DNA of 64,000 nucleotides. Origin: a virus. Every line of letters begins with the position of its first letter. Position 1 is the first letter of the stretch. Location: UHGV virus genome UHGV-0090440; one strand, given 5' to 3'. The translations under genes were made by a program, and so were the position numbers. The notes under the pieces were generated by a model. That model worked only from the letters and a program-made list of their open reading frames with translations. It was not told the DNA's origin and did no database searches. Positions 1,361-37,558 of the stretch are shown piece by piece.

Positions 1361-1713
1361 CGACGCCCCCTTGCCGGATATCGACCTGCATTAGTATCCG
1401 GTGCAATAAAGCCGGTAGTGGGGCGAGTGAAAGCGAGATTAATCTTCTCGACCATAGTGCGATAATTTTCCTGATAGTGGGCCAGGAGTTTTTCGGCGGC
1501 AATGATGGTTACTTTCCGGACGTAGCTTTCTGCTTCCTCCAGATTTCGCCAGTTTTTTTCGAGGGTAAACACAGGGACGGCCTCAAGCCCGGTCATGATG
1601 CCGAATACAACGACAGCATGACTGTTCTTAACACCAGCGGCGAAGGTTACGGTGTAACCATCCACCGTGAAGCGTCTTGATTCCGTGATTTGACTCTGCA
1701 AAGCACCCTCCAA
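1357..1713 (-). CDS. hypothetical protein
   Basis: 118-aa ORF, first gene of the dut operon; operator-like motif 45 bp upstream. Confidence 0.45.
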   Translation of the reverse strand: MEGALQSQITESRRFTVDGYTVTFAAGVKNSHAVVVFGIMTGLEAVPVFTLEKNWRNLEEAESYVRKVTIIAAEKLLAHYQENYRTMVEKINLAFTRPTTGFIAPDTNAGRYPARGRR

Positions 1714-1759
1714 AATAGGCGAGGGTACTTTACAGCAAAGATAACAATCTAAAAAGATG

Positions 1760-1773
1760 TGTTAGAAATTTAA
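1760..1773 (+). promoter_or_regulatory. recurrent 14-bp motif site (TGTTAGAAATTTAA)
   Basis: One of at least 10 intergenic copies of consensus TGTTAGAAAATTAA; sits at the 3' end of the Cre-like gene, upstream of the dut operon. Confidence 0.4.
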
Positions 1774-1774
1774 T

Positions 1775-2803
1775 TTACGAATCCATCAAGCGGCTATTAG
1801 CCCCCACAGACACACCGCCACGGCGCAGATACCGCATAAGTGTTTCCGGTTTCTTCCAGGTTCCTTCCTGCATGATCTCCACCATAGACACCTGCTTTTC
1901 AGCCATATCAATAGCGGCCCCGACGCGTGCACTATGCCCGGTCCACGTCCGGTATCTTCCTTTGTTTGGCGTAGCATCCCTTTTATTCAGCAACCCCCAG
2001 GCGTCGCTGAATATTTTCTCCATTGCAGGTGCAGTAAGGGGCGTTGTCGTAATCCTGGCCTTATTGCTACGGTGTATCGGCGGGAACAGCACCGCGTCAG
2101 GATGTTCACGAAGCCCGGAAACATCCAGCCAGTCATTCAGCACAGCAGTAGTGCGACGGGAAAGCACCTTATCAAGCCCGGCGGCGGTCGTTATTGTCTT
2201 CGTGTGTGAAATATGTAGCGTGACAGTGTCACCTATTTGGTCCAGATCTCCTACACGAATACGCGAGATTTCCGACATACGCATCAGCGTATTGTATGCA
2301 ACAAAGAGAAAAGCCCGGTTGCGCTGGTCCACCAGCCGTTCTGACCTGGACAGCAGGACGTCGAGCAGTTTCAGGTCGTCCCACCGCAACGGTATAGCCT
2401 GGCCTGTTCGCTCGCCTTTTCCCGTTGCCGCTTCGCGCCGGATGCGCCGCATGGCCAGAGACACACTTTTATCGTCCGACAGCGGCGGGAGGCCACATTG
2501 CGAAAGCAGCATGTTAAGCATGGCATAGTGCTTATCAATGGTGGTCGAAGCCAGATCGGCATCATGCAACTGAAGAAAATACTCGCGGGCCATTTCTGGT
2601 GAGATCGGAAACCAGGCAAGCTGGCGAGCGTGACACCAGCGCGCCCAGGAATGAAACACCAACCGGAGGTCGCGCAGAGTATTCGGCGCATAAGCCCCCT
2701 GGTCATTCATGAACCGCATAAAGTTTTCTGCGGCTTCCTGGTACTCTTTGCCAATGTTGCGCAGAAAACCACCGGAACTGCCAGAGATAATCAACTCACT
2801 CAT
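1775..2803 (-). CDS. cre: Cre-like tyrosine site-specific recombinase
   Basis: 342 aa; colinear similarity to P1 Cre as recalled (SVSLAMRRIRRE, AYNTLMRMSEISRIRVGD, HSARVGAA, GTW, MRYLRR), covering the R..HxxR..W..Y catalytic signature. Confidence 0.9.
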   Translation of the reverse strand: MSELIISGSSGGFLRNIGKEYQEAAENFMRFMNDQGAYAPNTLRDLRLVFHSWARWCHARQLAWFPISPEMAREYFLQLHDADLASTTIDKHYAMLNMLLSQCGLPPLSDDKSVSLAMRRIRREAATGKGERTGQAIPLRWDDLKLLDVLLSRSERLVDQRNRAFLFVAYNTLMRMSEISRIRVGDLDQIGDTVTLHISHTKTITTAAGLDKVLSRRTTAVLNDWLDVSGLREHPDAVLFPPIHRSNKARITTTPLTAPAMEKIFSDAWGLLNKRDATPNKGRYRTWTGHSARVGAAIDMAEKQVSMVEIMQEGTWKKPETLMRYLRRGGVSVGANSRLMDS

Positions 2804-2954
2804 GGAACTATTTCACCTCTATATACAGATGACGCTACGCGAAAAATATAAAAATGACAGGGTAGCTATAAGTTAATTTTCAAAATACAAGCCTTTGATT
2901 CGAAGCACGTATTTTCAGTGATGTCAATACTGTTCATCTACACATGATTATAGT

Positions 2955-2988
2955 CTAACTTTAAATAATGCCAATTATTTAAAGTTAT
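2955..2988. other. candidate lox-type recombination site
   Basis: Perfect 13-bp inverted repeats TAACTTTAAATAA (2956-2968, 2975-2987) around asymmetric 6-bp core TGCCAA; as 13+8+13 it reads CTAACTTTAAATA-ATGCCAAT-TATTTAAAGTTAT, close to loxP arms (TAACTT...ATA) and spacer start (ATG). About 150 bp upstream of the Cre-like start. Confidence 0.5.
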
Positions 2989-3083
2989 AAAATGCCGATT
3001 TTTTTGTAATCCATCATAGATTGATGATGGACAGTAACACGTTGCCTTCATGGTCTTTAATTTGCGAAGTGTGGTTTCAACGG

Positions 3084-3097
3084 TTGGTTTTCTAACG
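3084..3097 (-). promoter_or_regulatory. recurrent 14-bp motif site (CGTTAGAAAACCAA, 11/14)
   Basis: Inverted relative to the site at 3172-3185; together they bracket the presumed promoter of the c1-position gene. Confidence 0.3.
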
Positions 3098-3171
3098 TTG
3101 ATGACAAAAAAATCATAGTCCGATCCTTTACTCGCTCTGTTATTCGACATAAATTTGTCATAGTAATTTTA

Positions 3172-3185
3172 TGTTAGAAAACTAA
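3172..3185 (+). promoter_or_regulatory. recurrent 14-bp motif site (TGTTAGAAAACTAA)
   Basis: Consensus match about 20 bp upstream of the RBS of the 3197-4237 gene. Confidence 0.4.
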
Positions 3186-3196
3186 ATCGCGTAGGA

Positions 3197-4237
3197 ATGA
3201 TGAGTATGAAGTCGATCGAGAAAGAGTACAAACGGTTCCTGCAAACCGCAGAACGGTGGAAAGAGCTGGTGGTCGCAAACTCTGTTTTCCATGATACCAG
3301 TTATGCTGGTGAGGAATTCCGCCATGTTGCATTAACGCATGACCAAAACATATTAGAAGAAGCTGAAAAATGTCTTGCTGAATGGAAAGCCTTCGTTGAC
3401 ATGTGCCGCGATGCCGACGGCAAAGCGTCGAACATTGTTGAGTCCGTATATTCTCCGATCCCATTCATCATTGAGGACACCAATCAAAGCACGCATGTCG
3501 TTGTGCAAAGCGCTACAACAACACGTGCATTTACACGTGAACAATTGCTAAAAAAATACGACAAAATCATAAAGAAAAGCCTGAAAAATAGGGTTTTTTC
3601 TCAAATCGTAGGTGCTCTTGAAGAAGAACAGCGCTTCTTTGAAGCTGAGCCTGAAGGCGAGATCTACCGGGCGCGTAAAGAGGCATATACAGATGTTGTG
3701 CTGACAACAAACATCGAAGGCAGTAATGCCCTTTCTCGCTTTAGAGTTGGCGCACATGGCGCATTGGTTTTCGCAAGACTACCGAAGACAACGATCCCCG
3801 TTGTCAATAATGTTGGTGAACGCCGGAGCATTACAATTTATTCTGGCGTCGAATCGGTACCTTGCAGCCTTCTCGGCGATTTTAACTTATATCGTGTTCG
3901 TGACCTGGAAAAACACCAGCCAAGCTACGTTGCGAAGTCGTATATCTTAAGGAACATCGATATTCGCAATGAAAGCCTTAAGCAGAAATCCGCTAAGATG
4001 CTGGAGGATGCCGATCCGGCTATTCGCCATATCATTGAGCGTAAGATACGTACATCACGTGAAGCAATGGCAAGGCTGGATAAAATGGATCTGGAATTGT
4101 TAGACGTAATGATGGCCTCTGGAGACGACCTGACCGGCATTAAACTGAATGAAGCTCGTAAAAAATACGGCAAAGCAATCGAAGAACGTTACGGATACAC
4201 ATTCCCCCAAACGCAGTACGCCGCGAAGCTCTGGTAA
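3197..4237 (+). CDS. hypothetical protein in the position of the P1 c1 immunity repressor
   Basis: 346-aa ORF (start may be ATG 3206, which has a better-spaced AGGA); divergent from the Cre-like gene, convergent with pacB, flanked by two motif copies, followed by an intrinsic terminator. Function inferred from position only. Confidence 0.55.
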   Translation: MMSMKSIEKEYKRFLQTAERWKELVVANSVFHDTSYAGEEFRHVALTHDQNILEEAEKCLAEWKAFVDMCRDADGKASNIVESVYSPIPFIIEDTNQSTHVVVQSATTTRAFTREQLLKKYDKIIKKSLKNRVFSQIVGALEEEQRFFEAEPEGEIYRARKEAYTDVVLTTNIEGSNALSRFRVGAHGALVFARLPKTTIPVVNNVGERRSITIYSGVESVPCSLLGDFNLYRVRDLEKHQPSYVAKSYILRNIDIRNESLKQKSAKMLEDADPAIRHIIERKIRTSREAMARLDKMDLELLDVMMASGDDLTGIKLNEARKKYGKAIEERYGYTFPQTQYAAKLW

Positions 4238-4246
4238 TCACAACCG

Positions 4247-4272
4247 GCCCCGCATCGCGGGGCTTTATATAT
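4247..4272 (+). terminator. intrinsic terminator
   Basis: GCCCCGC-ATC-GCGGGGC hairpin followed by TTTATATAT; sits between the convergent 3197-4237 and pacB genes. Confidence 0.55.
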
Positions 4273-5773
4273 CCAGATCCGGCATTTCGATATCCGCCAG
4301 AACCTGATCTCGGAAAGTTGCCATTTCGGCACCAATATCTTCATTAGCAGGCACATAGTCCACCAGCATAGTGAAGCAGTAGGTATCCCATCGGTCAGGC
4401 GATTTGATGTTTAGCTTTTGCCGCATGTGCTCTTTGCGCATCATCGCCATTTTCCCTTCTTCATTCATTAAAAAGGGGATTTTTGACGCTTGCTCTGCCG
4501 TTTTAGGGTCACTGTCTATCCGCATACGCCCTGACTTTATGGCATCACGCGCCATGATATTTGCGTAGGCACGCTGATTAACAAATCGCTCCCTGTCTTT
4601 GTTCGCAAACATGGGTTTTCCCCACCGAATACGTACCGGGTTCGCACCACGACGCACCAACTGCGCACACGTATCAGAACCAAAACCATCAGCATCAACC
4701 GCGATTGTTATATTCGGGTATTTTTCCGGCGTACATTCGTTATATATGAAGTCAGCAAAGGCCAATGGGTCCATAGTGCCAGGCATCTCCATTACCTTAA
4801 AGTTAACAACGCGCCGCTTATCCCTGTGACCTGATACCTTGCAGATGTTGAGGACCGACTTATCTCGCCCATTACCAACGTCAGCCGTTGCCACCCATCC
4901 CCAGTTTTTCTCCAACAACACCTTGCGGCGAGCAGAGCGATCGCATTCATCACGACCAAGCAAATAGCCGTTAATTTCTCGTGGGAACTGACCAAGCACC
5001 TTGACCATGTACTCAATAGAATCGCGCCCGCCATATTCCAGAAGCTTCTCCTTGATGAATTGTGGTGTGACGAACGGTGATTCTTCCGAGTTAAGAACAA
5101 TTGCTGTCCAGATCCCTTTCGGGTTGTCTGGGGTTTTTGCTCGAGAATGGTGCGAATCGTAGAAATAACCACTTGGCCTTGTTGGCTGGGATAGCATCAA
5201 CATCCGGTTATCTTCTTCAGTAAGAGCACCGGTCATTACGCCGATCGCCTTATCAGATATACCAGATGCTTCATCCAGAATTAGAAGCAAATGTGCCGCG
5301 TGTTCCCCCGCCAGCGCTTCTTCGTTGCCGAGTCGATAACCTTTGCAGAGAACTTCCCAAATCCCCTTACGGGAGCGCTCATAAAACATGGTGTCAGAGA
5401 GGACAAAATAGGTCTGCAACCACCCATGACGCTTAACTGCATTCGCCCAATACTGTTTAACGTATTTGAATACGCCTGTTTTTACCTGGCCTATCTTGTT
5501 AGCAACAATGATGACACGGGCATCGGGGAACAGGATCATAAAAATCAACAGCAACATCGCGGTAAGGGACGACTTCCCCGTTCCGTGTCCGGACGTGACG
5601 GTAGTCCTACTCCCCGTTTCCTGTACGGACTGAATGATCTGCTGCTGCTGCGGGGAGGGGAACATCCCAAAAATATCGACAACAGCCTGGGTAAAGTTGT
5701 AGCGGTATTTGATTACCATATCGCGCCAGCGTGGATCTCTGGTGACGCATTTAACCTTGCGCCCGCCAGCCAT
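4265..5773 (-). CDS. pacB: terminase large subunit (PacB-like)
   Basis: 502 aa; Walker A SGHGTGKSS, Walker B LLILDEAS, C-terminal acidic nuclease-type region (IAVDADGFG); translationally coupled to the upstream small subunit. Confidence 0.85.
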   Translation of the reverse strand: MAGGRKVKCVTRDPRWRDMVIKYRYNFTQAVVDIFGMFPSPQQQQIIQSVQETGSRTTVTSGHGTGKSSLTAMLLLIFMILFPDARVIIVANKIGQVKTGVFKYVKQYWANAVKRHGWLQTYFVLSDTMFYERSRKGIWEVLCKGYRLGNEEALAGEHAAHLLLILDEASGISDKAIGVMTGALTEEDNRMLMLSQPTRPSGYFYDSHHSRAKTPDNPKGIWTAIVLNSEESPFVTPQFIKEKLLEYGGRDSIEYMVKVLGQFPREINGYLLGRDECDRSARRKVLLEKNWGWVATADVGNGRDKSVLNICKVSGHRDKRRVVNFKVMEMPGTMDPLAFADFIYNECTPEKYPNITIAVDADGFGSDTCAQLVRRGANPVRIRWGKPMFANKDRERFVNQRAYANIMARDAIKSGRMRIDSDPKTAEQASKIPFLMNEEGKMAMMRKEHMRQKLNIKSPDRWDTYCFTMLVDYVPANEDIGAEMATFRDQVLADIEMPDLDI

Positions 5774-7137
5774 TAATCATCCTCCGGCGGTTCTATCGCG
5801 ATATCATCATCTCCGGCGTCATACCCTGCATCAGATGCATCATAATCACCGTAAATTTCAGCCGTTGCCGAAGGGTCAATATCCAGCTCTTCGTCGTTGG
5901 CCTCGAATTCTCCAGCTTTACGCTCGCCATTGCGGTCATAATCTCCGCACCCCAATTCTTCAACAATGGTTGCCACATCCGCCCGGCGCTCTGCCAGCCA
6001 TTGCGGATGGTTAGCCTGAAGCGTTGCAAACTCCCTTGCCTCTTTGTCCAGCTGTTCATCATCAACATCATTGACGTCAGAAACAGGTGGTTCGAGAAGA
6101 GTGATAGCTTTCGCCGCGCGCGCCGCGAGGATAGCCGGGACGCTGACCCCCTGGCGCTCGATGTATTCAGCAACACCGATATCATCCAGTTCCTCGCGCT
6201 CACGCATACGTATAGCGGCGGCGATAACTCTGGCTGCGCGTGCGTCAGCGCCAATGCGATATTCAATCTCTTTGCCACGCTGTTCGGCCTGTAGGCGTGC
6301 TAATTCGAGTTTTTCTCTGGCCTCAGCCTCTTTGAATGCTTGCTGGCGAGCGCTCTGACGAAGCTTTTCATCCCCCTGTCGCAGCTTTTGTTCGGACTGA
6401 TATATAGCTGCCAACCTACTGATAAAATCATTCATGTAGTAGGCCGCGTCACTGATTAGACCGAGAAGGCGCTGCCCAGGGTGCATTCCTTCTGGCTCTT
6501 TATCGCCCAAGGTGTCTATTTCCGCCTGTAGACGTTCGGCCTCCTGATCAACAATGCTTTGATACTGAAGTGCGCGCTCTTGCGCCATTTGAATTGCTAA
6601 CCGCAGGTGTTCTTCTGCGCCGTTCTTCATCATATCGCGAGCAACATTCGTAGTTGGCAATGTGGCACGCTGCACAGCACCGTCAGGGATCATTGCAGAA
6701 GATCCCTCAATTTTTGGGGCGCTTTTATCTTCTTCGGGGATCATTTTCGCCATTTTTTCGCGCAATGATCTCCTGACGGATTCTTTTATCTCATTGTTAT
6801 TATTTGAATTATTTTCATGATCCGAAGTTTTCTTTCTCGGCATACTTCGGAAAGAACCTGCGCCCTGCGAATTGTCAATTTCTGTAAATTTTGTTTTTTC
6901 TGCACCCTCTTCCTGCTTTTTTGTTGCTCTTCCTGCCCGTTTTTTTTCAGGTGATTTGGTGCTTTTTTTTGTTGTCTTTACCTGCGACCGCACCTCATTT
7001 TTTTTCATATTGAGATGCTTTCTGGCTGTATTGAAGCTAAGGCCATGCTCCTCACAGTATTCCTTTACAGTGATCCCTTTTTCTTCACGCAACGCTATAA
7101 AGCGGGCGCGGTGCTCCTCCCAATTAACCAGACTCAT
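5773..7137 (-). CDS. pacA: terminase small / pac-recognition subunit (PacA-like)
   Basis: 454 aa; N-terminal HTH-like region, long charged coiled-coil middle, acidic C-terminus; immediately upstream of the large subunit. Confidence 0.6.
   Translation of the reverse strand: MSLVNWEEHRARFIALREEKGITVKEYCEEHGLSFNTARKHLNMKKNEVRSQVKTTKKSTKSPEKKRAGRATKKQEEGAEKTKFTEIDNSQGAGSFRSMPRKKTSDHENNSNNNNEIKESVRRSLREKMAKMIPEEDKSAPKIEGSSAMIPDGAVQRATLPTTNVARDMMKNGAEEHLRLAIQMAQERALQYQSIVDQEAERLQAEIDTLGDKEPEGMHPGQRLLGLISDAAYYMNDFISRLAAIYQSEQKLRQGDEKLRQSARQQAFKEAEAREKLELARLQAEQRGKEIEYRIGADARAARVIAAAIRMREREELDDIGVAEYIERQGVSVPAILAARAAKAITLLEPPVSDVNDVDDEQLDKEAREFATLQANHPQWLAERRADVATIVEELGCGDYDRNGERKAGEFEANDEELDIDPSATAEIYGDYDASDAGYDAGDDDIAIEPPEDD
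6686..6833. other. candidate pac site
   Basis: Five GATC sites in about 150 bp inside the PacA-like gene, four embedded in TGATCY elements in both orientations; P1 pac is a cluster of Dam-methylatable TGATCA/G hexamers inside pacA (recalled). Confidence 0.35.
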
Positions 7138-9055: not shown

Positions 9056-9131
9056 TGGTGGCCCCTACCGGACTTGAACCGGTGACCGTGCGATTATGAG
9101 TCGCCAGCTCTAACCACTGAGCTAAAGGGCC
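9056..9131 (-). tRNA. tRNA-Ile (anticodon CAU, ileX-like)
   Basis: 76-nt cloverleaf by hand folding: acceptor GGCCCTT/AGGGGCC, D-arm GCTCAGTGGTTAGAGC, anticodon loop CTCATAA, T-loop TTCAAGT, encoded CCA. Near-identical to E. coli ileX as recalled; CAT could also read Met. Confidence 0.85.
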
Positions 9132-9285
9132 AGATTACTGTTAATTCCGCTTACGCTTTTTGCCAGGACCGCGTAAGGCTTTTGCTGCTTGCTCGACCCC
9201 ATATACAACCACCAGCAGAAATAAAAATGTCCACCAAGGGTTCTTATCGGCAAACGTCCAAAATTCCATCATGTTCTCTATTTGG

Positions 9286-10113
9286 TTATTTCACCGGAAC
9301 AAACGGAACAGCGGTATTACTGGTCATATACTGCGGTAGCGTTCCGTTCCATTTGTTGATCGCTTCCAACTCCATAACGCCGGGGTTCTGGCGCAGAGCC
9401 TCACCGCGTAAACGAATGGCATCAGCTTCAGCCTGGGCTTTTGTGCGAATGGCATCGGCCTGTCCGGCAGCTTCTGCGCGCAGCATGTTGGCTTCTGCTT
9501 CGCGTTGCTTGACTTCCTGCTCGCGTTGCAGAGTTTTCTGGTTCGCCGTGACTTTGGCATTAATGCTGTCGATAACGGTTGGCGGGTACTCCGGCTTGCC
9601 CACATATGAGAGGCTCATTACCTGAATACCGATGGGCGTCATTTCTTCCTGGATGTCTTTAAGAGCTGCATCCAGTAGTTCAGACTTGCCACCGTCGATA
9701 AATTTGTCGGTGGTCATTTTGCTGGCCAGTCGGTTAAGTGCGTCGGCAATCTTCTGGCGCAGATCGGTGTCGGTAATGTCATCCACGCCTTTGCGGTAGG
9801 TCTGAAATACAGTTGTGACTTTTGCCGGATCAACCTTGTAAGCTACACCAATGTGGTAACCAATTGTTGTCCCGTCGCTCATTTGGAAGCTGAACGGATC
9901 ATCATAGGTCTTCATTTGCTTAAAGGTCGGGAAGATATAAACTTCTGTGTTCCAGCCTGTCCAGTAGCGACCAACGCCAACTACTTCGCCGACACCTTTA
10001 TCATCCCCCAGCTTATTTACTTTGATCCCTACATTGCCTGGTTCTACCCGGTCGCATCCGGTCAGACATAAAGAACCAAAAATAATCGCTGCACTAATCA
10101 ACGTTTTTTTCAT
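9286..10113 (-). CDS. SPFH/band-7 domain lipoprotein
   Basis: 275 aa; signal peptide with lipobox LTGC; SPFH-type core and Ala/Glu-rich coiled-coil tail (EAEANMLRAEAAGQADAIRTKAQAEADAIR). Confidence 0.8.
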   Translation of the reverse strand: MKKTLISAAIIFGSLCLTGCDRVEPGNVGIKVNKLGDDKGVGEVVGVGRYWTGWNTEVYIFPTFKQMKTYDDPFSFQMSDGTTIGYHIGVAYKVDPAKVTTVFQTYRKGVDDITDTDLRQKIADALNRLASKMTTDKFIDGGKSELLDAALKDIQEEMTPIGIQVMSLSYVGKPEYPPTVIDSINAKVTANQKTLQREQEVKQREAEANMLRAEAAGQADAIRTKAQAEADAIRLRGEALRQNPGVMELEAINKWNGTLPQYMTSNTAVPFVPVK

Positions 10114-10330
10114 TAATCAATTTCCTGGTTTTTTCACGAAAAAAGACTACTGCAAAAGCCGGGTAAATGAGCGCGAGAAGGACTCCCAACAATACAAGTA
10201 TTGTGCTGTCAGATGAGATCATATTTGGCAAAAGCCAAACATACAGAACCAGTGACACAATCAAACAGAGGACGGCATAAATATATAGCCGCACCCATAG
10301 CGTTCGACATTTGTTCGGATTGTTCTGCAT
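10094..10330 (-). CDS. small membrane protein
   Basis: 78 aa with two hydrophobic helices; overlaps the start of the SPFH gene (operon partner). Confidence 0.5.
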   Translation of the reverse strand: MQNNPNKCRTLWVRLYIYAVLCLIVSLVLYVWLLPNMISSDSTILVLLGVLLALIYPAFAVVFFREKTRKLINEKNVD

Positions 10331-10370
10331 CCTCTCACTCCATTATTCAACGAATAAAAAAGCTGCGGTG

Positions 10371-11465: not shown

Positions 11466-11552
11466 TGGTGGGGAGTGATGGAGTCGAACCACCCGAGTCG
11501 CAATGACAGTAGATTTACAGTCTACCCCGCTGCCCCTACGGACTAACTCCCC
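11466..11552 (-). tRNA. tRNA-Tyr (anticodon GUA), type II
   Basis: 87 nt: acceptor GGGGAGT/ACTCCCC, anticodon stem-loop GTAGA-CTGTAAA-TCTAC, long variable arm, T-loop TTCGACT, encoded CCA. Confidence 0.8.
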
Positions 11553-14144: not shown

Positions 14145-14175
14145 CAAAAAACCCGCCAATTGGCGGGTTTTTATG
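14145..14175. terminator. bidirectional intrinsic terminator
   Basis: A-run, ACCCGCCAA/TTGGCGGGT palindrome, T-run (AAAAAACCCGCCAATTGGCGGGTTTTTAT). Confidence 0.6.
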
Positions 14176-19000: not shown

Positions 19001-22000
19001 CGGTCGCATCCTCCTCTGCTTCTTCTGCATCGTCTGCCGCTTTCCCACCAGCCACTTTTGGTAGGTTATTAGCTATAGACTTCACCTGTTCAGTAAGCTC
19101 TACAGGGAACTGGAATGTGATAGCGCTGGCGTAAAGATCCGGGTCGATAGCGACCTTATCCATGTCGCGAATGATAGAGAAAATGAAATCATCCGGTTTC
19201 TCGCGAGTGATATTGCCTTCATCATCGACAGTGACGTCATCACCACGACTTAACTCCTGCGCGCGTTTACGAAGCTCTTCATAAGCTGCTTGCTGCTCTG
19301 GAGTCATTGGGATCTGCAAGGTGTTTTCGACGATATCCGGGATTTTTACCGTTGCACCAACATCGGAAGCCGTTTTAAGCGTTGTCCAGCGGTGGAAAAT
19401 GCCACGCAGACCATCAAGGTTCTGGAAGCCCACCAGCCCCTGTTTCTCTTCCACTTCGCCAGAAATTTTCTGGACCTGAACAGTGGCTGTTTTACCGAAC
19501 ACTCGCACAAAGTCGTCAGGGGTAATAATCCCCATGTGCATCCACTCGTGCTGAGGGATCACCGTTGACAGCATGTTGAAGGCGTCAATAGGGCTATTAA
19601 CCAGCGGAGTTGCTGTCAGCATTACGACGCCGCGCCCATTGTGACGTTTCATCATGTACGCAGCTTTTACAGCCATGTCACGGGCCATTTTGGATACCGC
19701 CGGATTAGGTAAATATGCCAGTTGCCCCGCTTCACGCCCGGCACCAAAGGAGTTGCGGTAGTTGTGCCCTTCGTCGGCAATTACGCTATCGAAGTTCATA
19801 TCCTCAAAGTACGGGATATTCTGCTTCTTCGCTGTACCGGTATTCGCGGCCTGGTCCTTAATCTTGTTCTTCTTCTGCGCATCACGGTGCTTGCCTGACG
19901 CCAGGTCAAGACGCCCCATTTCGGCGGCATTAAAGACAGCCTGCTGTGAGTTTTCTCCGATGGTTTCATCGCGCAACGGGATAGATGCGAACTGCTCTTT
20001 TGTCATGATGACCGTTCGCCAGTTCGACGATGGGATCATGTTCATGCGTTGAGCGATAACGGCACTGGCGGATTCTTTAACAACATTACGGGTGATCGGA
20101 TTGCCGTCGTTATCAAGTCGCGGGGTGCCGTCCTGGTCGAGCACTGGGGCAGTCTGAATATTTCCGTCACCATCGCGCACTTCGTCCAGACCGATAAACA
20201 TCATATTGGCGAAGGCATCTGCACTGTAGAAGCTCTGTGCCTCGTGATACCAGTTCTGGTATACGGCCTTTGGAACAACGATACAGGTACGTTTGGTTCG
20301 CCCGGTTTCAAAGTTATAGGCTTCCAGTGCCAGCGCGGTCGTCGTTTTACCCAAACCAGTTCCGAATCCCATAATCCCGCGCCCATCTTCCGACAGACGA
20401 CGAACTTCTTCGTTCTGGTAAGAAAGCGGTATACGTTTCCCGCTGATGCCTTCAAGCCCCAGGGGTGCGTCTGAATGGGTAAATGGAATATAACCGTTAA
20501 AGGCGTCGTTATAATCGCGGGCGATCTGGTCTGCCTGCGGGTGAGTTCTTAACCAGTCGTTAAAACTCGTCTCAAGCTGGGCGATTTTGTCCAGGTACTC
20601 GTTAGCGTTCTGTCCGCGCGGTTTAACACCGTTCAGGTAGTTCTCAAGCTGATTCAGGAAGCCATCTTTGTTATTCGCTTTCTTGAACTCGTTCCCGTTT
20701 TTGCCGTTTACGGTTCGTAGTTGATAGCCAGTAAATACCCCGTCCTTACCTTCGTAATCGTCCGGGGATACCAGAATGCCGTTCTCAACCTTAAGGTCGG
20801 GTTCTGTATACTTAAACTCGTCATAGCCCTGCTCTGCCAGGAACTCTTTTATCAGGCGGCGATCCAACCACCGTGCGTTAAGGTTTACCGTGACTTTGTT
20901 CAGCGGTGTAAACGTGCGTTTCTCTTCGATTTTTGAAAGCTGGCGCTCAAAGTTGGCCTTCCGCTCTCCTGTGGACGCGTCTCGCCAGCCCACCAGCAGT
21001 GCCACTTTTGATTTAATATCACCGCTGGTGGCACGGCCCATCGGTAGCAGGCAACCATATCCATCAATAGCGATATCGTCGAATTTCGCCAGGTATTCCA
21101 GTGCTTGATCGTCGTCTTCTGGCAGTTCGCCTTTAAACGCCTCGCGGAAGTCATCAAGATTGATAGGATTAAGGGCAACATCGCTGAAAAGGTGTGTCAC
21201 AACCTGTTCCGGACGAGTGAAATCAATACCAGCAGCCCCTTTGCTAACATCAAGCCGTCCGGACAGCAGATCGGATGCTTCACCGTCCTGATTGACGTTC
21301 CCGGTAAATGTCAGCCAGTTCTTCGCGCCCGCTTCGGTAATGTCGTTTAGCTTAATGGCGTGTGGTGGGCCATATTTAGCAACTTCGGCAGCCGTCAGAC
21401 GTGCGGCATCAGCCAGTTCATCATCGACGTTTTCACCAAGGTTACGCTTATCCAGCGCTTTATTGATAAGTTGCCCGATCAGCGCACCGCGCATAATGCG
21501 CTCACGGTCTTTTTCGCGTTGTTTCCCAGCAAAGCGAATCATTGCCGCTACTTCATCACTGATAACCGATGGATAGTCGGAAGCGATCGCGGATATCTGC
21601 CCCCATGACAGAGCCAGAATGCCGTTTGTTGATTGGAACGTTGTTTGCAGATCACCGAATGTCGAAACACCATATCGGCTTACATCAAGTACGGAGGATT
21701 TGGTTGTCGCATCTTTAACCCATTGCAGGCCATCAAACTCGTGCCAGATGCCACCTACAAGGCGCTTGTCTCCTACTTTGGCGCCCTGCCATGCCTGAGT
21801 AGTTACGCCAAGCAAATCCCAATTAATGCGGCTTTCAAAGCGGCGTGATAGCGCGGTTTTCATCGACTCATTGGATACACGACCGTCCTTTTTCACCACC
21901 AGAGTATTGCGGAAGCTGGTACGTTCCATGTCGCCGTAAACAAATCGCTTCCCTTCGGTTGTAAACCATTTTCCTTTGAGGAAGGTATCCCAAAGGACGT

Positions 22001-24274: not shown

Positions 24275-25237
24275 TCATCCCCTAAATCCCGCAGGGATTG
24301 ACCAATCCTCCCGGTCAAATTCAGACCGATAGCCACGCTGTTTCATCAGGTCAAAGGCTTCACCAATGGTTGCACACCCCTGGGAGCCAGAATAATCCAT
24401 TGAGAAATCCAGGACACTGGATTGTTTAGGCTTATTCACTGCGGTAGCGGCACTACGTATCCATGCAAATTTTTTTGCCAGCTTTTCAGCGGTACGATAC
24501 AGAGCCTGCCGTTTTGCGTGCCCCTCGTCTGAACGACGCTTTGCAGCTCTCGCTTTTGCCGCCGCCAGGCAGCGGTTGGTATGTTCTTCCCTGATTACTG
24601 GTTTTTTATCCAGCGCCCCATTATCCGCTTGAGAACTATCTGCTGGTGAAGCCTTTGGCTGAACCGCGCATGATCTTTCTCTTCTTTTTGCTATAGAGTG
24701 ACTCTTATTTTCTATTGGCTGTTCATTTTGAACATGGGGGGACTTGTTCAAAATGAACAGGGGGTTCCCAGTTTCAAAAAAATAACGAACCTTTGAAATC
24801 AACTGCTTAACCAGTTTTGTGGCGTTGGCAAATTTGATGCCCTGCTTACCCCCTATCTCCATTGCTGCATGAATGAAGTGGAGAAATTGTGTCGTAAACC
24901 GATATACGTTACACACCTGGGCATTGTTATTCGCTACCTGATGTTGCCTAACAAGCATTCCGCACTTCGTCGCTTCAGCAAATGCCCGGCGTACAGTAGA
25001 AATACTGCGTCCTGTAATCTCGGACATATCAGCATATGAGCGACGGATCATGTATTCATCGGTAGCCCCTGCCAGGTTGGCGAACTCGGCAATAATAGCG
25101 CTATGTGAAGGGGAAAGAAGACCGCTATGACGAGCAAAAAAACTCAACTGATGACCTTTGATTTTTTTGTGGTATTCAGTGTTGTTTTTATACTCAGAAG
25201 TGTTGAAAGTTACTGAAACTGAATTTAAAATATTCAT
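24275..25237 (-). CDS. HTH-containing protein with basic C-terminal half; candidate replication or regulatory protein
   Basis: 320 aa; probable HTH (MSEITGRSISTVRRAFAEATKCGML), Lys/Arg-rich C-terminal region; coding sequence carries two 15-bp palindromes. Confidence 0.55.
   Translation of the reverse strand: MNILNSVSVTFNTSEYKNNTEYHKKIKGHQLSFFARHSGLLSPSHSAIIAEFANLAGATDEYMIRRSYADMSEITGRSISTVRRAFAEATKCGMLVRQHQVANNNAQVCNVYRFTTQFLHFIHAAMEIGGKQGIKFANATKLVKQLISKVRYFFETGNPLFILNKSPHVQNEQPIENKSHSIAKRRERSCAVQPKASPADSSQADNGALDKKPVIREEHTNRCLAAAKARAAKRRSDEGHAKRQALYRTAEKLAKKFAWIRSAATAVNKPKQSSVLDFSMDYSGSQGCATIGEAFDLMKQRGYRSEFDREDWSIPAGFRG
24720..24764. repeat. tandem pair of palindromes TGTTCA-N3-TGAACA each followed by a G-run
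   Basis: TGTTCATTTTGAACAtgggggg (24720-24741) and TGTTCAAAATGAACAggggg (24745-24764) inside the 320-aa ORF. Confidence 0.45.
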
Positions 25238-25300
25238 CAGATAGTTCCGTGAAAAAATCTATCTACCGTATAAATCTATGCCAGTGGATTTATACACCCA

Positions 25301-25332
25301 AAAGCCGCTTCTCAGCGGCTTTTGCTTTTTTT
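25301..25332. terminator. intrinsic terminator-like hairpin
   Basis: AAAGCCGC-TTCTCA-GCGGCTTT followed by TGCTTTTTTT on the plus strand; separates the 332-aa and 320-aa genes. Confidence 0.4.
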
Positions 25333-25410
25333 GGCAGTCGCTACCGGAGCAGTGACCGCGATCCTACTCGATCACATCGGACAGAATCAACAGTGTATAT
25401 AAATACACTA

Positions 25411-25424
25411 TGTTAGAAATTTAA
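25411..25424 (+). promoter_or_regulatory. recurrent 14-bp motif site (TGTTAGAAATTTAA)
   Basis: Identical 14-mer to the site at 1760-1773. Confidence 0.4.
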
Positions 25425-25437
25425 TTTCATTCTGCGG

Positions 25438-26436
25438 TTATGCCCGTCGTGAAACGAAGAGTAATGGGGTAGTATTTTTGCTCTCCTTCGGCGATAACTC
25501 CGGCTCTTTCTTGCCTGATATCGGCAAGCCATAAGTCGCATTTGCCCCCAGTGATTCAAGCATCGCAGCCACTATGCGAGCATCATCTTCAGACTGCATA
25601 CGGCAGAGCGCCCGGCGCTGTTCTGCGCTAATAAAAACAGGCATTTCCTGGATAGCGTCACGCAAAATCCGGCGGCATTGCTTTGCATTTTCCCCCTGGC
25701 TTTCCATCATCGCTGTTTGAGTGCGCAGCTTATCTCGAAGCTGTATGTTTTCCACTTCAAGGAGCATCAATTCTGACTCAAGGGCTTCACGCTGTGCTGA
25801 CTCGAAAATAGCCTGCTGATTCTTCATTGCTGAAAAGTGGTGAACAAGATCCGTAGCCGCGTTATCGGTAAAACCTTGTTCGATAAGTGCCGCATGAATA
25901 GCCGCGTCGCGCTCTTCTGCTGATTCCAGCATCAGGCTTTTCTTGTCCAGACTGATATAGTTAGGCACAGTTACGTAATCAAAGCCGTGAAAAGACTTTA
26001 CCAGGGATACAGATGAATCTGGGCCAGATGTAGCCCATGACCAACCACCAGCACCTGAATTAATCATTCCCTGTACAATACGCCCGGTGTCTGTATCCAG
26101 TATTTCCTGCGTATGGGTAACAATGCCGTTGTCGTCAATCGAAATGTCGATAGTCCTGTTTGATGGCACGTTCTCCAATACAACAGGTTTCCCATCAACC
26201 ATCACAACAGAGACTTCCGGCAGGTTCAGGCTTTTCGTTTTGTTATAGTGCATCGCCCGGCGACCATGACCGTAATAGCCATACATCTCACCAAGTGCGA
26301 TACGCTCTTTTGTTTCTGGCGAGTTGAATGTGTCTCGCACCGACTGAATAACGTAATTTCGGTTGTTCTGCGGTGTGTGTTTGCGGATTTTCTCTACCAG
26401 GGAGAAGCGATCCGTAACAGTGTTCAGTGATTGCAT
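25438..26436 (-). CDS. virion morphogenesis protein (prohead protease or scaffold candidate)
   Basis: 332 aa directly downstream of the portal candidate; C-terminal coiled coil. Function inferred from gene order. Confidence 0.35.
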   Translation of the reverse strand: MQSLNTVTDRFSLVEKIRKHTPQNNRNYVIQSVRDTFNSPETKERIALGEMYGYYGHGRRAMHYNKTKSLNLPEVSVVMVDGKPVVLENVPSNRTIDISIDDNGIVTHTQEILDTDTGRIVQGMINSGAGGWSWATSGPDSSVSLVKSFHGFDYVTVPNYISLDKKSLMLESAEERDAAIHAALIEQGFTDNAATDLVHHFSAMKNQQAIFESAQREALESELMLLEVENIQLRDKLRTQTAMMESQGENAKQCRRILRDAIQEMPVFISAEQRRALCRMQSEDDARIVAAMLESLGANATYGLPISGKKEPELSPKESKNTTPLLFVSRRA

Positions 26437-28132: not shown

Positions 28133-28196
28133 GAATCACCGCAAATTGTTTCCAGTTTTGCGGCAGCATAATCAGTATGTGATTTCAGCGGTTGGT

Positions 28197-29582
28197 TTAG
28201 TTTTCTGTACGGCAATTATTTGGAACTGTAGAATTTTCAAACATAGCAAAGTTCAGACCTTTCCCTTCGCCAAATTCACCCTCAATCTCATCGGAAACGG
28301 CAGACAAAATGCTACGCAGATCGACATCTCCGCCGCCGAACATATCGCCTAACGCTTGTTGCTGGTGAATAAGCTCATCGTTAATTTTTTGCGCCAGTTT
28401 CTTGAAAGCGGCCCCCATACGCTTAGCGCTTCTGTTGTTGGCAACAATAAACAGAGCAAGCGCTTCCGCTTCCGGAGTGCTATCTCCAAACAATCCACGC
28501 TGTGCGATCACCTCTTCTACTGCCTGACCGTTATCTTTTGCTTCACGAACAAGGTTAATTGCTTCCTGTAGCGCGGCAATAGCCTGTTTATCCAGACCAT
28601 TCAATTGCTCTATGCCGTCTACCAGTCCGGTTACCGTGTCATGGTGAACATCGCCTGAAAGTGACTGCATTTGCGCAAAATCGCTGGCTGCCGTATTTAA
28701 TGCGGTAAGGATGTTACGCATTTCCGGATCTGGCTCTTCCGCCACCAGCCGAACAAGCCTTTCATCCTTGTACGCTTTGGCAAAAATTGCATTCTGGATG
28801 CGGTCGATAAGTTGTTTCGTTGGACGCCCATCGGCAGTAAGCAAACCTGCCGTCGCCGTATCACCTATTTCGCGCAAAAACGCACGAATAAACGCATCAT
28901 TGGACCGCGCCAGTAGATTTCCATCATCTGAAGGATTAAATAGCGCCATGACGCTCTCAGTGAGAAATTGCGCATCCGCATACGCTTTTTCACTTGCAGC
29001 CATCTCTTGCAGATCGCTGATGTTTGAATCGCGGGCAAATTGAGCGCGGTCTACATCTGTGAGTCTTTCTCGCACCAGTACGGGCATAGACATTTGCGAA
29101 ATTTCGTCAGGATTCAGACCAAACTCTTTCGCATGGTCGATCAGGTACTGGCGATATTCATCCGCCTGCCCTTGCTCATAGGCACGCCAGATACCCATGC
29201 TCCTTCCGTTGCCGGATTCAACAACGTTGTCCGGACCAACTATCGGCGCTCCGTGGCTGCTCATGCCGGAATCCGTTAATTGTGCCGGGCGTAAATTGGA
29301 GGCAATACGGTTAACCTGGAGTTTGCTTGATAGCCGTGTACGGTCACGTGGCTGGAGTTCTTCCGGGAAGGCCGGATTAATCGTACCGTCAAGGTTGTTC
29401 GAAATGATCAGACTGCTGGCATCAACGACCTTAAAAGCCGTCTTTACCTCTGCCCCTTTACTGGTGACTACGTAACTACTGCGCCCCTGGCGTGTTTCTC
29501 GCCTCTCTAATGAAGAAACCAGCGCAATAACACTGTTAATGTCTGCTGCTTCGGATAGCGCGGAAGTAACTGACTTGTTCAA
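28197..29582 (-). CDS. hypothetical virion-associated protein
   Basis: 461-aa ORF in the same operon. Confidence 0.5.
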   Translation of the reverse strand: MNKSVTSALSEAADINSVIALVSSLERRETRQGRSSYVVTSKGAEVKTAFKVVDASSLIISNNLDGTINPAFPEELQPRDRTRLSSKLQVNRIASNLRPAQLTDSGMSSHGAPIVGPDNVVESGNGRSMGIWRAYEQGQADEYRQYLIDHAKEFGLNPDEISQMSMPVLVRERLTDVDRAQFARDSNISDLQEMAASEKAYADAQFLTESVMALFNPSDDGNLLARSNDAFIRAFLREIGDTATAGLLTADGRPTKQLIDRIQNAIFAKAYKDERLVRLVAEEPDPEMRNILTALNTAASDFAQMQSLSGDVHHDTVTGLVDGIEQLNGLDKQAIAALQEAINLVREAKDNGQAVEEVIAQRGLFGDSTPEAEALALFIVANNRSAKRMGAAFKKLAQKINDELIHQQQALGDMFGGGDVDLRSILSAVSDEIEGEFGEGKGLNFAMFENSTVPNNCRTEN

Positions 29583-34147: not shown

Positions 34148-36463
34148 CTTGCGACGGCAAGAAACATCAACGGTGTTAAATTTGATGGTTCTGTGGACAT
34201 TTCGATACCAACAATTACGTCCAGAGGGCGTGTTACTGCGCTCACCGGTACAACACAAGGTGCTGCTACTGGATTGCAAATGTATGAGGCGTACAACAAC
34301 GGCTATCCTTCTGCTTACGGGAATGTGCTTCATCTTAAGGGCGCAACGGCAGTTGGTGAAGGTGAGTTGTTCATAGGTTGGAGCGGTACAAGTGGCGCTC
34401 ATGCACCTGTACATGTACGTTCGCGACGAGATACTGATACAGCCAGTTGGTCAGAGTGGGCGCAGGTCTACACATCGAAGGATTCCATCCCTGGTGTAAA
34501 TACCACGGGCAACCAGAACACAACCGGAAACGCGGCGTCTGCAACGAAATTACAAACGGCAAGAACTATTGGTGGTGTTTCATTTAATGGCACCGCAAAC
34601 ATCGACCTGCCGGGCGTGAATAAAACAGGCAATCAGAGCACTACCGGCAATGCAGCTACAGCCACAAAACTGCAAACAGCACGCACCATTAATGGGGTTT
34701 CATTTGACGGAACGGCTAATATTTCTCTGTCACCGGCAAATATTGGTTGCCCGGCATCTCCTACTGGTTGGCTTGAAACAGGTGATAATGGAGCATCAAT
34801 AACAACAGAGCAATTAGTGACTCTGCTACGAGATAATGGTGCTTTTAATGCAAAGGTATGGATAGCGCGTTGTGCCTGGGCGTATGCAAATAGTGCATCC
34901 ATACCAGACAGCGAAACAGGATGCGGCATTATTCCACTGGCTGGCGCAGTTATAGAGGTATTTAATAATAGCAGTAGCACGAGTTATTTTACCATTCGTA
35001 TAACAACGGCAACGACGACAAGTGTATCTGGCGCACTCACTAATGCTGAATTTATCTATGTGTCTAATGGCACAAGTTATTCACCAGGATGGCGCAGAGC
35101 GTATAACACTAAAAACAAACCTACTGCGGCTGATGTCGGAGCTTTACCACTATCTGGAGGAGCGTTAACTGGCGGATTAACTGCTGCTGGCGAGATTATT
35201 TCCAAATCGGCGAATGGTCTGCGCATTGCCTATGGCAACTATGGATTCTTTATCCGTAATGACGGCGGCAGCACATATTTCATGCTAACAGCATCAGGAG
35301 ATACGTTAGGTTCATGGAACAGTTTGCGACCGATTACAATTAATAATACCAGCGGTGTTGTGTCTATTGGTAATGGACTAAATGTTACTGGTGGCGTTAA
35401 TGGTAGTTTGAACGGTAATGCAGCGACAGCGACCAAGTTACAAACCGCTAGAACTATAAATGGGGTGTCGTTTGATGGTTCTAAAAATATTGAGCTAACG
35501 GCGGAAGATTTAAATCTTGAGCAAACTGTAGAATTAGCCGCAGGAGCATTGCAGAAAAACCAGAACGGCGCAGATATTCCGGGAAAAGATACCTTCACTA
35601 AAAATATTGGTGCATGTCGCGCTTTTCACAGTTCTATTAGTACAGGTGCAGGGAACTGGACAACGGCACAATTGATTGAATGGCTGGATTCTCAAGGGGC
35701 ATTCAATCACCCATACTGGATGTGCAAATGTTCATGGTCATACGGCAGTAATAAAATTATTACTGACACCGGATGTGGACTTATTCACCTTGCGGGTTGC
35801 GTTATTGAAGTTATGGGCTATAAAGGCGCCATGACCATTCGTATAACCACACCGAGTACCTCTAACGGTGGTGGCACTACGAATGCGCAATTTATATATA
35901 TTAACCACGGTTCAGAGTATTTACCTGGCTGGCGACGTGACTACAACACGAAAAACCAGCAGCCTGCATTTGCTTTAGGGCAGACAGGAAGCATAGTTGG
36001 AAATGACAAAGCTGTTGGATGGAACTCGATTAGCGGGGTTTATAACGCTAATATTGGTGGATCATCTACGTTGATTCTCCATTTTTATATGGGAGCTGGT
36101 AGTTGTCCGGCTGTTCAGTTCCGCGTGAATTATAAGAACGGCGGTATTTATTATCGTTCTGCGCGTGACGGTTATGGTTTTGAAGCCGACTGGTCGGAAT
36201 TTTATACTACAACACGTAAACCATCTGCGGGAGATGTTGGGGCATATACCAAAGCAGAATGTGATTCACGATTTATTACAGGTATTCGATTAGGTACAAA
36301 ATCGTCTGTGCAAACATGGAATGGTCCTGGATGGAACGATAAATCTGGTTATGTTGTTACTGCCTCAATTAACTCAAATAAGGACGAACTTATTGATACA
36401 ACTCAGGCAAGGCCGCTGCAGTATTGTATCAATGGTACATGGTATAACGCGGGAAGTATTTAA
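34058..36463 (+). CDS. alternative tail-fibre C-terminal cassette (Sv'-like), silent in this orientation
   Basis: 801-aa frame beginning with TTG inside the inverted repeat; first 30 aa identical to residues about 420-450 of the 1286-aa fibre; contains [15 protein letters not shown](N/G)GVSFDG repeats. Confidence 0.7.
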
Positions 36464-36465
36464 TT

Positions 36466-36999
36466 ATGCAGCATTTAAAAAACATCAGATCAGGTAATCC
36501 AAAAACTGTTAAACAATATGAATTGACGCGACAATTTGGTGTTGTCTGGTTGTATTCTGAAGACGGTAAAAACTGGTATGAGGAACAAAAGAACTTCCAG
36601 GATGACACTATAAAAATTGCTTACACATCAGATGGAGTTATTGTGGCTATAAATAAAGACGTATCTACAATAAATCCAGAAGGTTTAAGTGTGGTTGAGG
36701 TTGCTGACATTACCGCAAATCGCCGTGCTGACATTTCTGGTAAATGGATGTTCAAAGATGGCGTAGTGATAAAGCGAACTTATACCGAGGAAGAACAGAG
36801 GCAACAAGCTGAAAATGAAAAGCAAAGCCTATTGCAACTTGTCAGGGATAAAACCCAACTGTGGGACTCACAGCTACGGCTGGGCATCATTTCCGATGAG
36901 AATAAACAGAAATTAACCGCGTGGATGCTATATGCGCAGAAAGTAGAATCTACAGATACCTCCATCCTGCCAGTAACGTTTCCCGAACAACCAGAATGA
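36466..36999 (+). CDS. tail-fibre assembly chaperone (U'-like), alternative copy
   Basis: 177 aa; strongly similar to the 37027-37554 product (GNPKTV.QY.LT..F...W...[19 protein letters not shown]). Confidence 0.75.
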
Positions 37000-37026
37000 G
37001 AAAAGGCCCGTTATCGGGCCTTATTT

Positions 37027-37554
37027 TTACTCAGGTTTTTGTGGCCATTCTGGCTTTGACGTATCCACGCGGCTTACAAGAACGCTGTAGCGTTCCCATG
37101 CTTCCAGTCGGCTGTGGTCCTCATCCGTTGCCATATTCAGCCTTACTGCACGCTCTAGTAGTTGAATGACTGATTCAGCATCAGCAAGAAGTCTGGCTTT
37201 CTGATTTTCTACCTGCTGCTGTAATTCCTCTGCCGTATAAATACGTTTAATAACTGCGCCATCCTTAAACATCCAGTTACCAGAAATGTCGGCACGTCGG
37301 TTAGCAGTAATATCCGGCACTTCAACAACACTTAATCCATCCGGTCTGATAGCTGTTACATCCTTTTCCACATAGCGGATGATGTTATCTTTGTCATACG
37401 CTAATTTTATCGTGTCATCCTGGAAGTTCTTTTGTTCCTCATACCAGTTTTTACCGTCTTCTGTAAAAAACCAGATGACATCAAAATGTTTCGTCAGCTG
37501 GTATTGCTCAACTGTTTTTGGATTACCCGCTGTTATATTGATCAAATGCTGCAT
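37027..37554 (-). CDS. tail-fibre assembly chaperone (U-like), expressed copy
   Basis: ORF track start 37629; ATG 37554 preferred ([13 protein letters not shown], 5 bp after the fibre stop), about 175 aa. Confidence 0.75.
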
Positions 37555-37558
37555 AAAT

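Follow-up and report, generated by a model that had tools for sequence, protein, structure and literature searches.

Identification of a D6-Type Dre/rox Module

The locus described herein is almost certainly a Dre/rox module for site-specific recombination, carried by a P1-like plasmid prophage of the phage D6 type from Enterobacteriaceae. It lies within a 64-kb window (the whole 64,000-nucleotide stretch of virus DNA that was analyzed, UHGV-0090440). The module comprises the gene dre (1775..2803, minus strand), which encodes a 342-aa Cre-type tyrosine recombinase and is a natural allele of phage D6 Dre, and the site rox (2956..2987, no strand assigned). The site is 32 bp long, TAACTTTAAATAATGCCAATTATTTAAAGTTA, has perfect inverted arms, occurs once in the window, and matches the rox of D6 exactly. 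The Dre/rox pair is already known and in wide use, and the locus has little value as a discovery. Dre and rox of phage D6 were reportedly described by Sauer and McDermott in 2004. Since that year, Dre/rox has been a standard orthogonal partner of Cre/lox, with applications in mouse lineage tracing, zebrafish, yeast Sc2.0-type designs, and bacteria.

Our identification of the pair as Dre/rox is based on GenBank record AY753669, which covers the immC region of D6, and on later papers. When positions 1700-3200 of the window were searched by megablast, D6 was the only phage among the matching phage records, with DNA identities of 96.8-97.2%. The D6 features underlying this match are annotated as “dre: tyrosine recombinase” and “region of crossover (rox) site for Dre recombinase.” Likewise, AY753669 carries a misc_recomb feature, “rox,” given as the crossover site for Dre, whose sequence equals the 32-mer of the window base for base, and the alignment of the intergenic regions of the window and D6 runs through the 32-bp rox without any change. 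PMC4777119 and two other papers print this 32-mer as the sequence of rox. What marks the locus as Dre/rox is a protein near-identical to AAV84949, an identical target, the gene order of D6, and specificity residues of the Dre type.

The window shares with D6 Dre/rox (AY753669, MF356679) the rox site, the 152-bp gap between this site and the gene, the neighboring genes, and 337 of 342 protein residues. In contrast, five amino acid substitutions, approximately 3% DNA divergence, and a few indels elsewhere separate the two, and the window belongs to a D6-like plasmid prophage rather than to D6 itself.

Architecture of the Recombinase and Its Target

The product of dre matches the chains of Cre crystal structures from end to end (residues 22-341 against residues 21-340 of Cre, E ~1e-67), and its homology to Cre is accordingly full length and spans both domains, as is characteristic of a Cre-type system. 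Identity to Cre is 40% in a global alignment with a Cre reference sequence whose residues 21-340 agree with the PDB alignment. Membership in the tyrosine recombinase superfamily is evident both from the score against PF00589 (Phage_integrase), which is 59.3 bits over residues 159-327 compared to a cut-off of 27.1, and from the presence of the R-K-H-R-(H/W) residues and the tyrosine nucleophile. In the alignment, all seven catalytic residues of Cre are retained as R175, E178, K202, H290, R293, W316, and Y325, whose Cre counterparts are R173, E176, K201, H289, R292, W315, and Y324. In addition, the catalytic Arg, His, Arg, Trp, and Tyr positions of Dre as listed in PMC4777119 agree with the window protein. 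These data bear out the initial annotation, which had recognized a diverged Cre homologue that keeps the catalytic signature.

A repeat search revealed that rox has a 14-4-14 layout, in which arms at 2956-2969 and at 2974-2987, with 100% complementarity to each other, flank an asymmetric core, GCCA (2970-2973), and the site reads TAACTTTAAATAAT-GCCA-ATTATTTAAAGTTA. It is located upstream of dre, 152 bp from the ATG at position 2803. Thus, rox has the attributes of a Cre-type target, which is approximately 32-34 bp in length, has inverted arms of 13-14 bp and a short asymmetric spacer, and resides beside the recombinase gene. The same layout is given in the literature: PMC4777119, a study devoted to rox variants in which Sauer and McDermott 2004 is cited, reports inverted repeats of 14 bp around an asymmetric spacer of 4 bp, and PMC12331466 describes the rox of D6 as 32 bp arranged as 14-4-14.

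The lox-type site that had been noted approximately 150 bp upstream of the gene is therefore real and is 32 bp long. Its arms are perfect and its core is asymmetric, as had been stated, but the proposed division into 13-bp arms and a TGCCAA core leaves each arm one base short. The likenesses that rox shares with P1 loxP (TAACTT, ATA, and ATG at the start of the spacer) had also been recognized, and are as described in PMC4777119. The two sites differ in layout, with 13-8-13 (34 bp) for loxP compared to 14-4-14 (32 bp) for rox. No match to loxP itself (ATAACTTCGTATA-ATGTATGC-TATACGAAGTTAT) was found in the window at three or fewer mismatches. This result, together with an identity to Cre of only 40%, rules out P1 Cre/loxP.

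The rox palindrome is far above chance. Its 32-mer is present as a single copy in the 64-kb window and gave no matches in 100 shuffles at three or fewer mismatches, and the 13-nt half-site occurs at only two places in the window, both of them arms of rox, compared to 0.12 expected. Two perfect inverted repeats in the window combine arms of 14 nt or more with a spacer no longer than 10 nt, compared to none in 30 composition-preserving block shuffles. A further perfect inverted repeat besides rox, with 14-nt arms and a 10-nt spacer, is located at 24721-24758, near the repL region as judged by collinearity. Elsewhere in the window, a 26-bp perfect palindrome is present at 14147-14172.

Specificity of the Window Allele

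Because the locus is Dre/rox, the earlier pairing of this recombinase with this site is correct. Dre acts on rox in Escherichia coli and in mammalian cells (PMC4957104), and D6 Dre recombines rox and not loxP, while Cre does not recombine rox (PMC4957104, PMC12331466). The suggestion of a cognate pair with a new specificity therefore holds to the extent that Dre/rox is distinct from Cre/loxP, but the specificity is not new, having been published in 2004 and put to routine use. Similarly, the proposed value as an orthogonal Cre/lox-type tool corresponds to how Dre/rox is already used, as Cre and Dre do not cross-react (PMC12331466, PMC4957104).

Specificity positions of Cre include K43, R259, and G263, at which Dre and Panto have R, P, and K (PMC4957104). 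The window protein retains all three Dre-type residues (R44, P259, and K263). An alignment with D6 Dre (AAV84949) has 337 of 342 residues identical (98.5%) without gaps, and the five differences (window/D6) are Q102/H, G128/E, Q160/L, I190/T, and G270/V. These positions align with R101, A127, I158, T188, and R270 of Cre, and none coincides with a catalytic residue or with one of the three specificity positions that were checked. Among 39 related loci, G128 does not occur at all, and Q160 and I190 each occur in a single locus.

Given these five differences from the D6 reference, including one residue absent from the 39 other loci and two that are rare, it might be argued that the substitutions alter target specificity or activity, such that the window encodes not plain Dre but a novel variant tool. 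We consider this very improbable. The adjoining site is an unchanged wild-type rox, and the substitutions leave R44, P259, K263, and every catalytic residue unaltered. Moreover, the exact window protein is already public on 26 contigs of up to approximately 90 kb, where it is named “tyrosine-type recombinase/integrase,” and it is thus apparently carried by maintained plasmid prophages. With rox and the specificity residues unaltered, there is no sign of changed specificity, and we rejected this explanation as unlikely. Activity of the window allele is assumed, because five positions differ from the D6 Dre that was assayed. Judged by sequence, the five substitutions are ordinary allelic variation within Dre.

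Distribution and Natural Variants

The dre-rox segment was found on 144 PLSDB plasmids from Escherichia (118), Salmonella (16), Shigella (9), and Enterobacter (1), and the plasmids among those listed are mostly approximately 90 kb in size. Among 5426 complete E. coli genomes, 124 carry the segment, the best match reaching 99.1%, and 124 of its 127 places in these genomes are on plasmids. The other three are on records labeled as chromosome, and could reflect integration, co-integration, or assembly labeling. The 90%-identity cluster that holds the window protein has 845 members.

The chromosome-labeled records, and a Pfam family that is named “Phage integrase,” would be in keeping with a recombinase that is an integrase inserting the element at a chromosomal site, with the palindrome serving as an attP core. 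We see next to no chance of this, given that 124 of the 127 places are on plasmids of approximately 90 kb, that the protein aligns with Cre end to end, and that the site is a symmetrical, single-copy, 32-bp lox-type element. In published assays, furthermore, D6 Dre recombines rox with rox in E. coli, Bacillus subtilis, and mammalian cells without any accessory protein or further DNA site (PMC4777119, PMC4957104, PMC12331466). An integrase acting at attP was rejected based on the plasmid location and these assays.

The initial annotation had also proposed examining whether the site is conserved beside homologues of the gene. This analysis was conducted with a comparative set of 36 viral-contig loci, five plasmid loci drawn from lower identity bands, and the D6 immC record. 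A rox-type site is present 151-153 bp upstream of the start codon in each of the 41 loci that have the whole gene. Most loci carry wild-type rox, over a range of protein identity of 89-99%. About a dozen loci (L003, L010, L012, L017-L019, L021, L029-L031, and L040) have one A-to-G change in the gene-distal arm, TAACTTTAGATAAT. Two E. coli genomes with Dre/rox, one of which carries a single point mutation, have been reported (PMC4957104), and the “one point mutation” of E. coli DEC12A mentioned by Karimova et al. may correspond to TAACTTTAGATAAT. Variants of the rox spacer are present in three loci (L022, L031, and L034), the last of which encodes a protein with 70% identity.

The two most distant loci, L036 and L037 (IMG/VR contigs 3300013827_000026 and 3300025735_000294; recombinases 56% identical to Dre), carry the site TAACTTTATATAATGTCAGTTATATAAAGTTA, which has an identical A-to-T change in both arms. 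This site is located at 1317-1350 in L036, and lies 151 bp upstream of the recombinase gene. Matched changes in the two arms are expected when half-sites bound by a protein co-evolve with the recombinase. The nearest plasmid-encoded protein to the L036/L037 recombinase is only 58% identical, and the site string is in none of the papers searched.

A Cre-type pair with a site close to rox has been described from Pantoea sp. aB. The arms of its site, pox, are one base off those of rox, and either recombinase, Panto or Dre, acts on rox as well as on pox (PMC4957104). Panto is 52% identical to Dre and has another spacer (PMC4957104), whereas the window has wild-type rox and a 99% Dre. When L036/L037 were compared with the published Panto/pox, a candidate site in the Karimova 2016 supplement, seen in garbled OCR text, was similar but not identical. 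L036 and L037 may represent an uncharacterized recombinase/site pair of the Dre/Panto clade.

A Candidate Promoter Overlapping rox

A candidate sigma-70 promoter for dre (2947..2974, minus strand) matches the consensus at 11 of 12 positions. The -35 element, TTGGCA (2974..2969), consists of the rox core extended by one base at either end, the -10 element is TATAAT (2952..2947), and the 16-bp gap between them includes the gene-proximal arm of rox. Although no other sigma-70 match in the 64-kb window reaches 11/12, shuffles average 1.2 such matches per window, and the promoter-like sites in the region (two compared to 2.1 expected) are not above chance. Because the number of matches is at the chance level, the case for a promoter comes from its position and from conservation of the -10 element. 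TATAAT is kept in all loci of the Dre clade despite divergent flanking sequences and is missing in L036 and L037. The natural spacer variants of rox do not strictly preserve the -35 hexamer.

If this element is used, dre would be transcribed from a promoter whose -35 element and spacer lie inside rox, and bound Dre may limit its own synthesis; the sequence arrangement thus suggests that Dre could repress its own gene. We regard as possible, though somewhat doubtful, the fuller proposal that rox doubles as the core of the dre promoter, that Dre occupying rox shuts off dre transcription, and that spacer variants alter crossover compatibility and expression together. No description of a rox-embedded dre promoter was found in a search of literature other than the 2004 primary paper. 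In P1, by contrast, four cre promoters are annotated, all of them outside lox.

We give no credence to the notion that the palindrome is mainly an operator or promoter element with an incidental likeness to lox, because, although a near-consensus promoter overlaps rox and rox sits between the divergent genes dre and c1, the crossover role is annotated and documented by experiment (AY753669, PMC4777119, PMC4957104, PMC12331466), the -35 element is not strictly kept in the spacer variants, and a promoter role would add to the crossover role rather than replace it. The published recombination assays already speak against it as the sole explanation.

Genomic Context and Proposed Roles

The order of genes in the window, dut-orf3-orf2-dre-rox-c1-pacB-pacA-lpa, is the order annotated in AY753669. 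Collinearity with the 91-kb D6 genome extends over the entire window and across the rox junction, at 89-98% identity and with a few indels, and indicates that the window is part of a D6-like plasmid prophage of the P1 family. A c1-type prophage repressor gene (3197..4237, plus strand) reads away from rox and corresponds to D6 c1 (AAV84948 / D6_1) by position and by 97% DNA identity. It is followed by the terminase genes pacB (4265-5773, minus strand) and pacA (5773-7137, minus strand), which were assigned by synteny with their D6 namesakes; pacA lies 2.8-4.2 kb from rox.

This organization resembles that of P1 Cre/loxP, which shares with the window the fold family, the catalytic residues, and the placement of the site between the recombinase gene and c1-pacB-pacA. 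According to the P1 annotation (NC_005856), lox lies between cre and these genes, and pac is inside pacA, approximately 4 kb from lox. However, P1 carries cra between lox and cre, with a gap of 435 bp, whereas the window has no cra and a gap of 152 bp. In addition, the coi/imcAB genes found between c1 and lox in P1 are absent between c1 and rox in the window. A search of pacA for P1-type clusters of pac hexamers (TGATCA/G) yielded only single hexamers, at 6545 and 7339. The distance from rox to pac is consequently an estimate, as pac itself was not pinpointed.

Based on homology with Cre, one Dre monomer would occupy each 14-bp arm, and four monomers would synapse two rox sites. Tyr325, together with R175, K202, H290, R293, and W316, would then cleave and exchange strands around the short asymmetric core, and this exchange would pass through a Holliday junction.

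Because the layout of the window is the same as that of P1, the likely roles of Dre/rox are, by analogy, to cyclize terminally redundant DNA and, as the initial annotation had also suggested, to resolve plasmid dimers. In the first of these, the module would circularize terminally redundant linear phage DNA after infection, as suggested by a distance of approximately 4 kb between rox and pacA, which would place rox inside the redundancy of the first headful. In the second, it would resolve dimers of the plasmid prophage to monomers and thereby permit partition. To our knowledge, these two functions have been demonstrated for P1 Cre only, and not for D6.

Other Features of the Window

A 16-mer motif, TGTTAGAAAAYTAAAT, is present at positions 1760, 3172, 7605, 12839, 14088, 24205, 25411, and 58225. 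These eight copies at three or fewer mismatches compare to 1.7 expected, and none of 100 shuffles reached eight. One copy abuts the stop codon of dre, and another is located 10 bp before the start of c1. The motif is a candidate operator for the D6-type C1 repressor, and differs from the P1 C1 operator.

Several segments depart from D6. The region at 9274-10363 has no match in D6 and holds an ORF of 275 aa (9286..10113, minus strand) with a lipoprotein-like N-terminus (LTGC). A tRNA-Met gene (9056-9131) lies just upstream of this region and a tRNA-Tyr gene is present at 11466-11552; the D6 record annotates neither of these tRNA genes. At approximately 23637 and approximately 28185-28237, the window lacks D6 19860-20688 (orf17 and the anti-repressor orf18) and D6 25242-26351 (orf23 and orf24). 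The segment at 34600-40010, which includes the tail-fiber genes and the Cin-invertible segment, is 71-81% identical to D6 or has no match, with parts of it inverted. Such strong divergence is expected for a host-range cassette.

Implications

This locus illustrates that a true recombinase/target pair can be recognized from raw sequence alone. What is mildly new herein is the rox-embedded candidate promoter, the natural rox variants, and the metagenomic relative pair, and the remainder is already known. The practical additions are a catalogue of natural rox variants and a series of Dre alleles of 89-99% identity that keep rox. Finally, the relative with 56% identity and a symmetric change in the arms of its site may offer a candidate further tool or a subject for studies of recombinase specificity.
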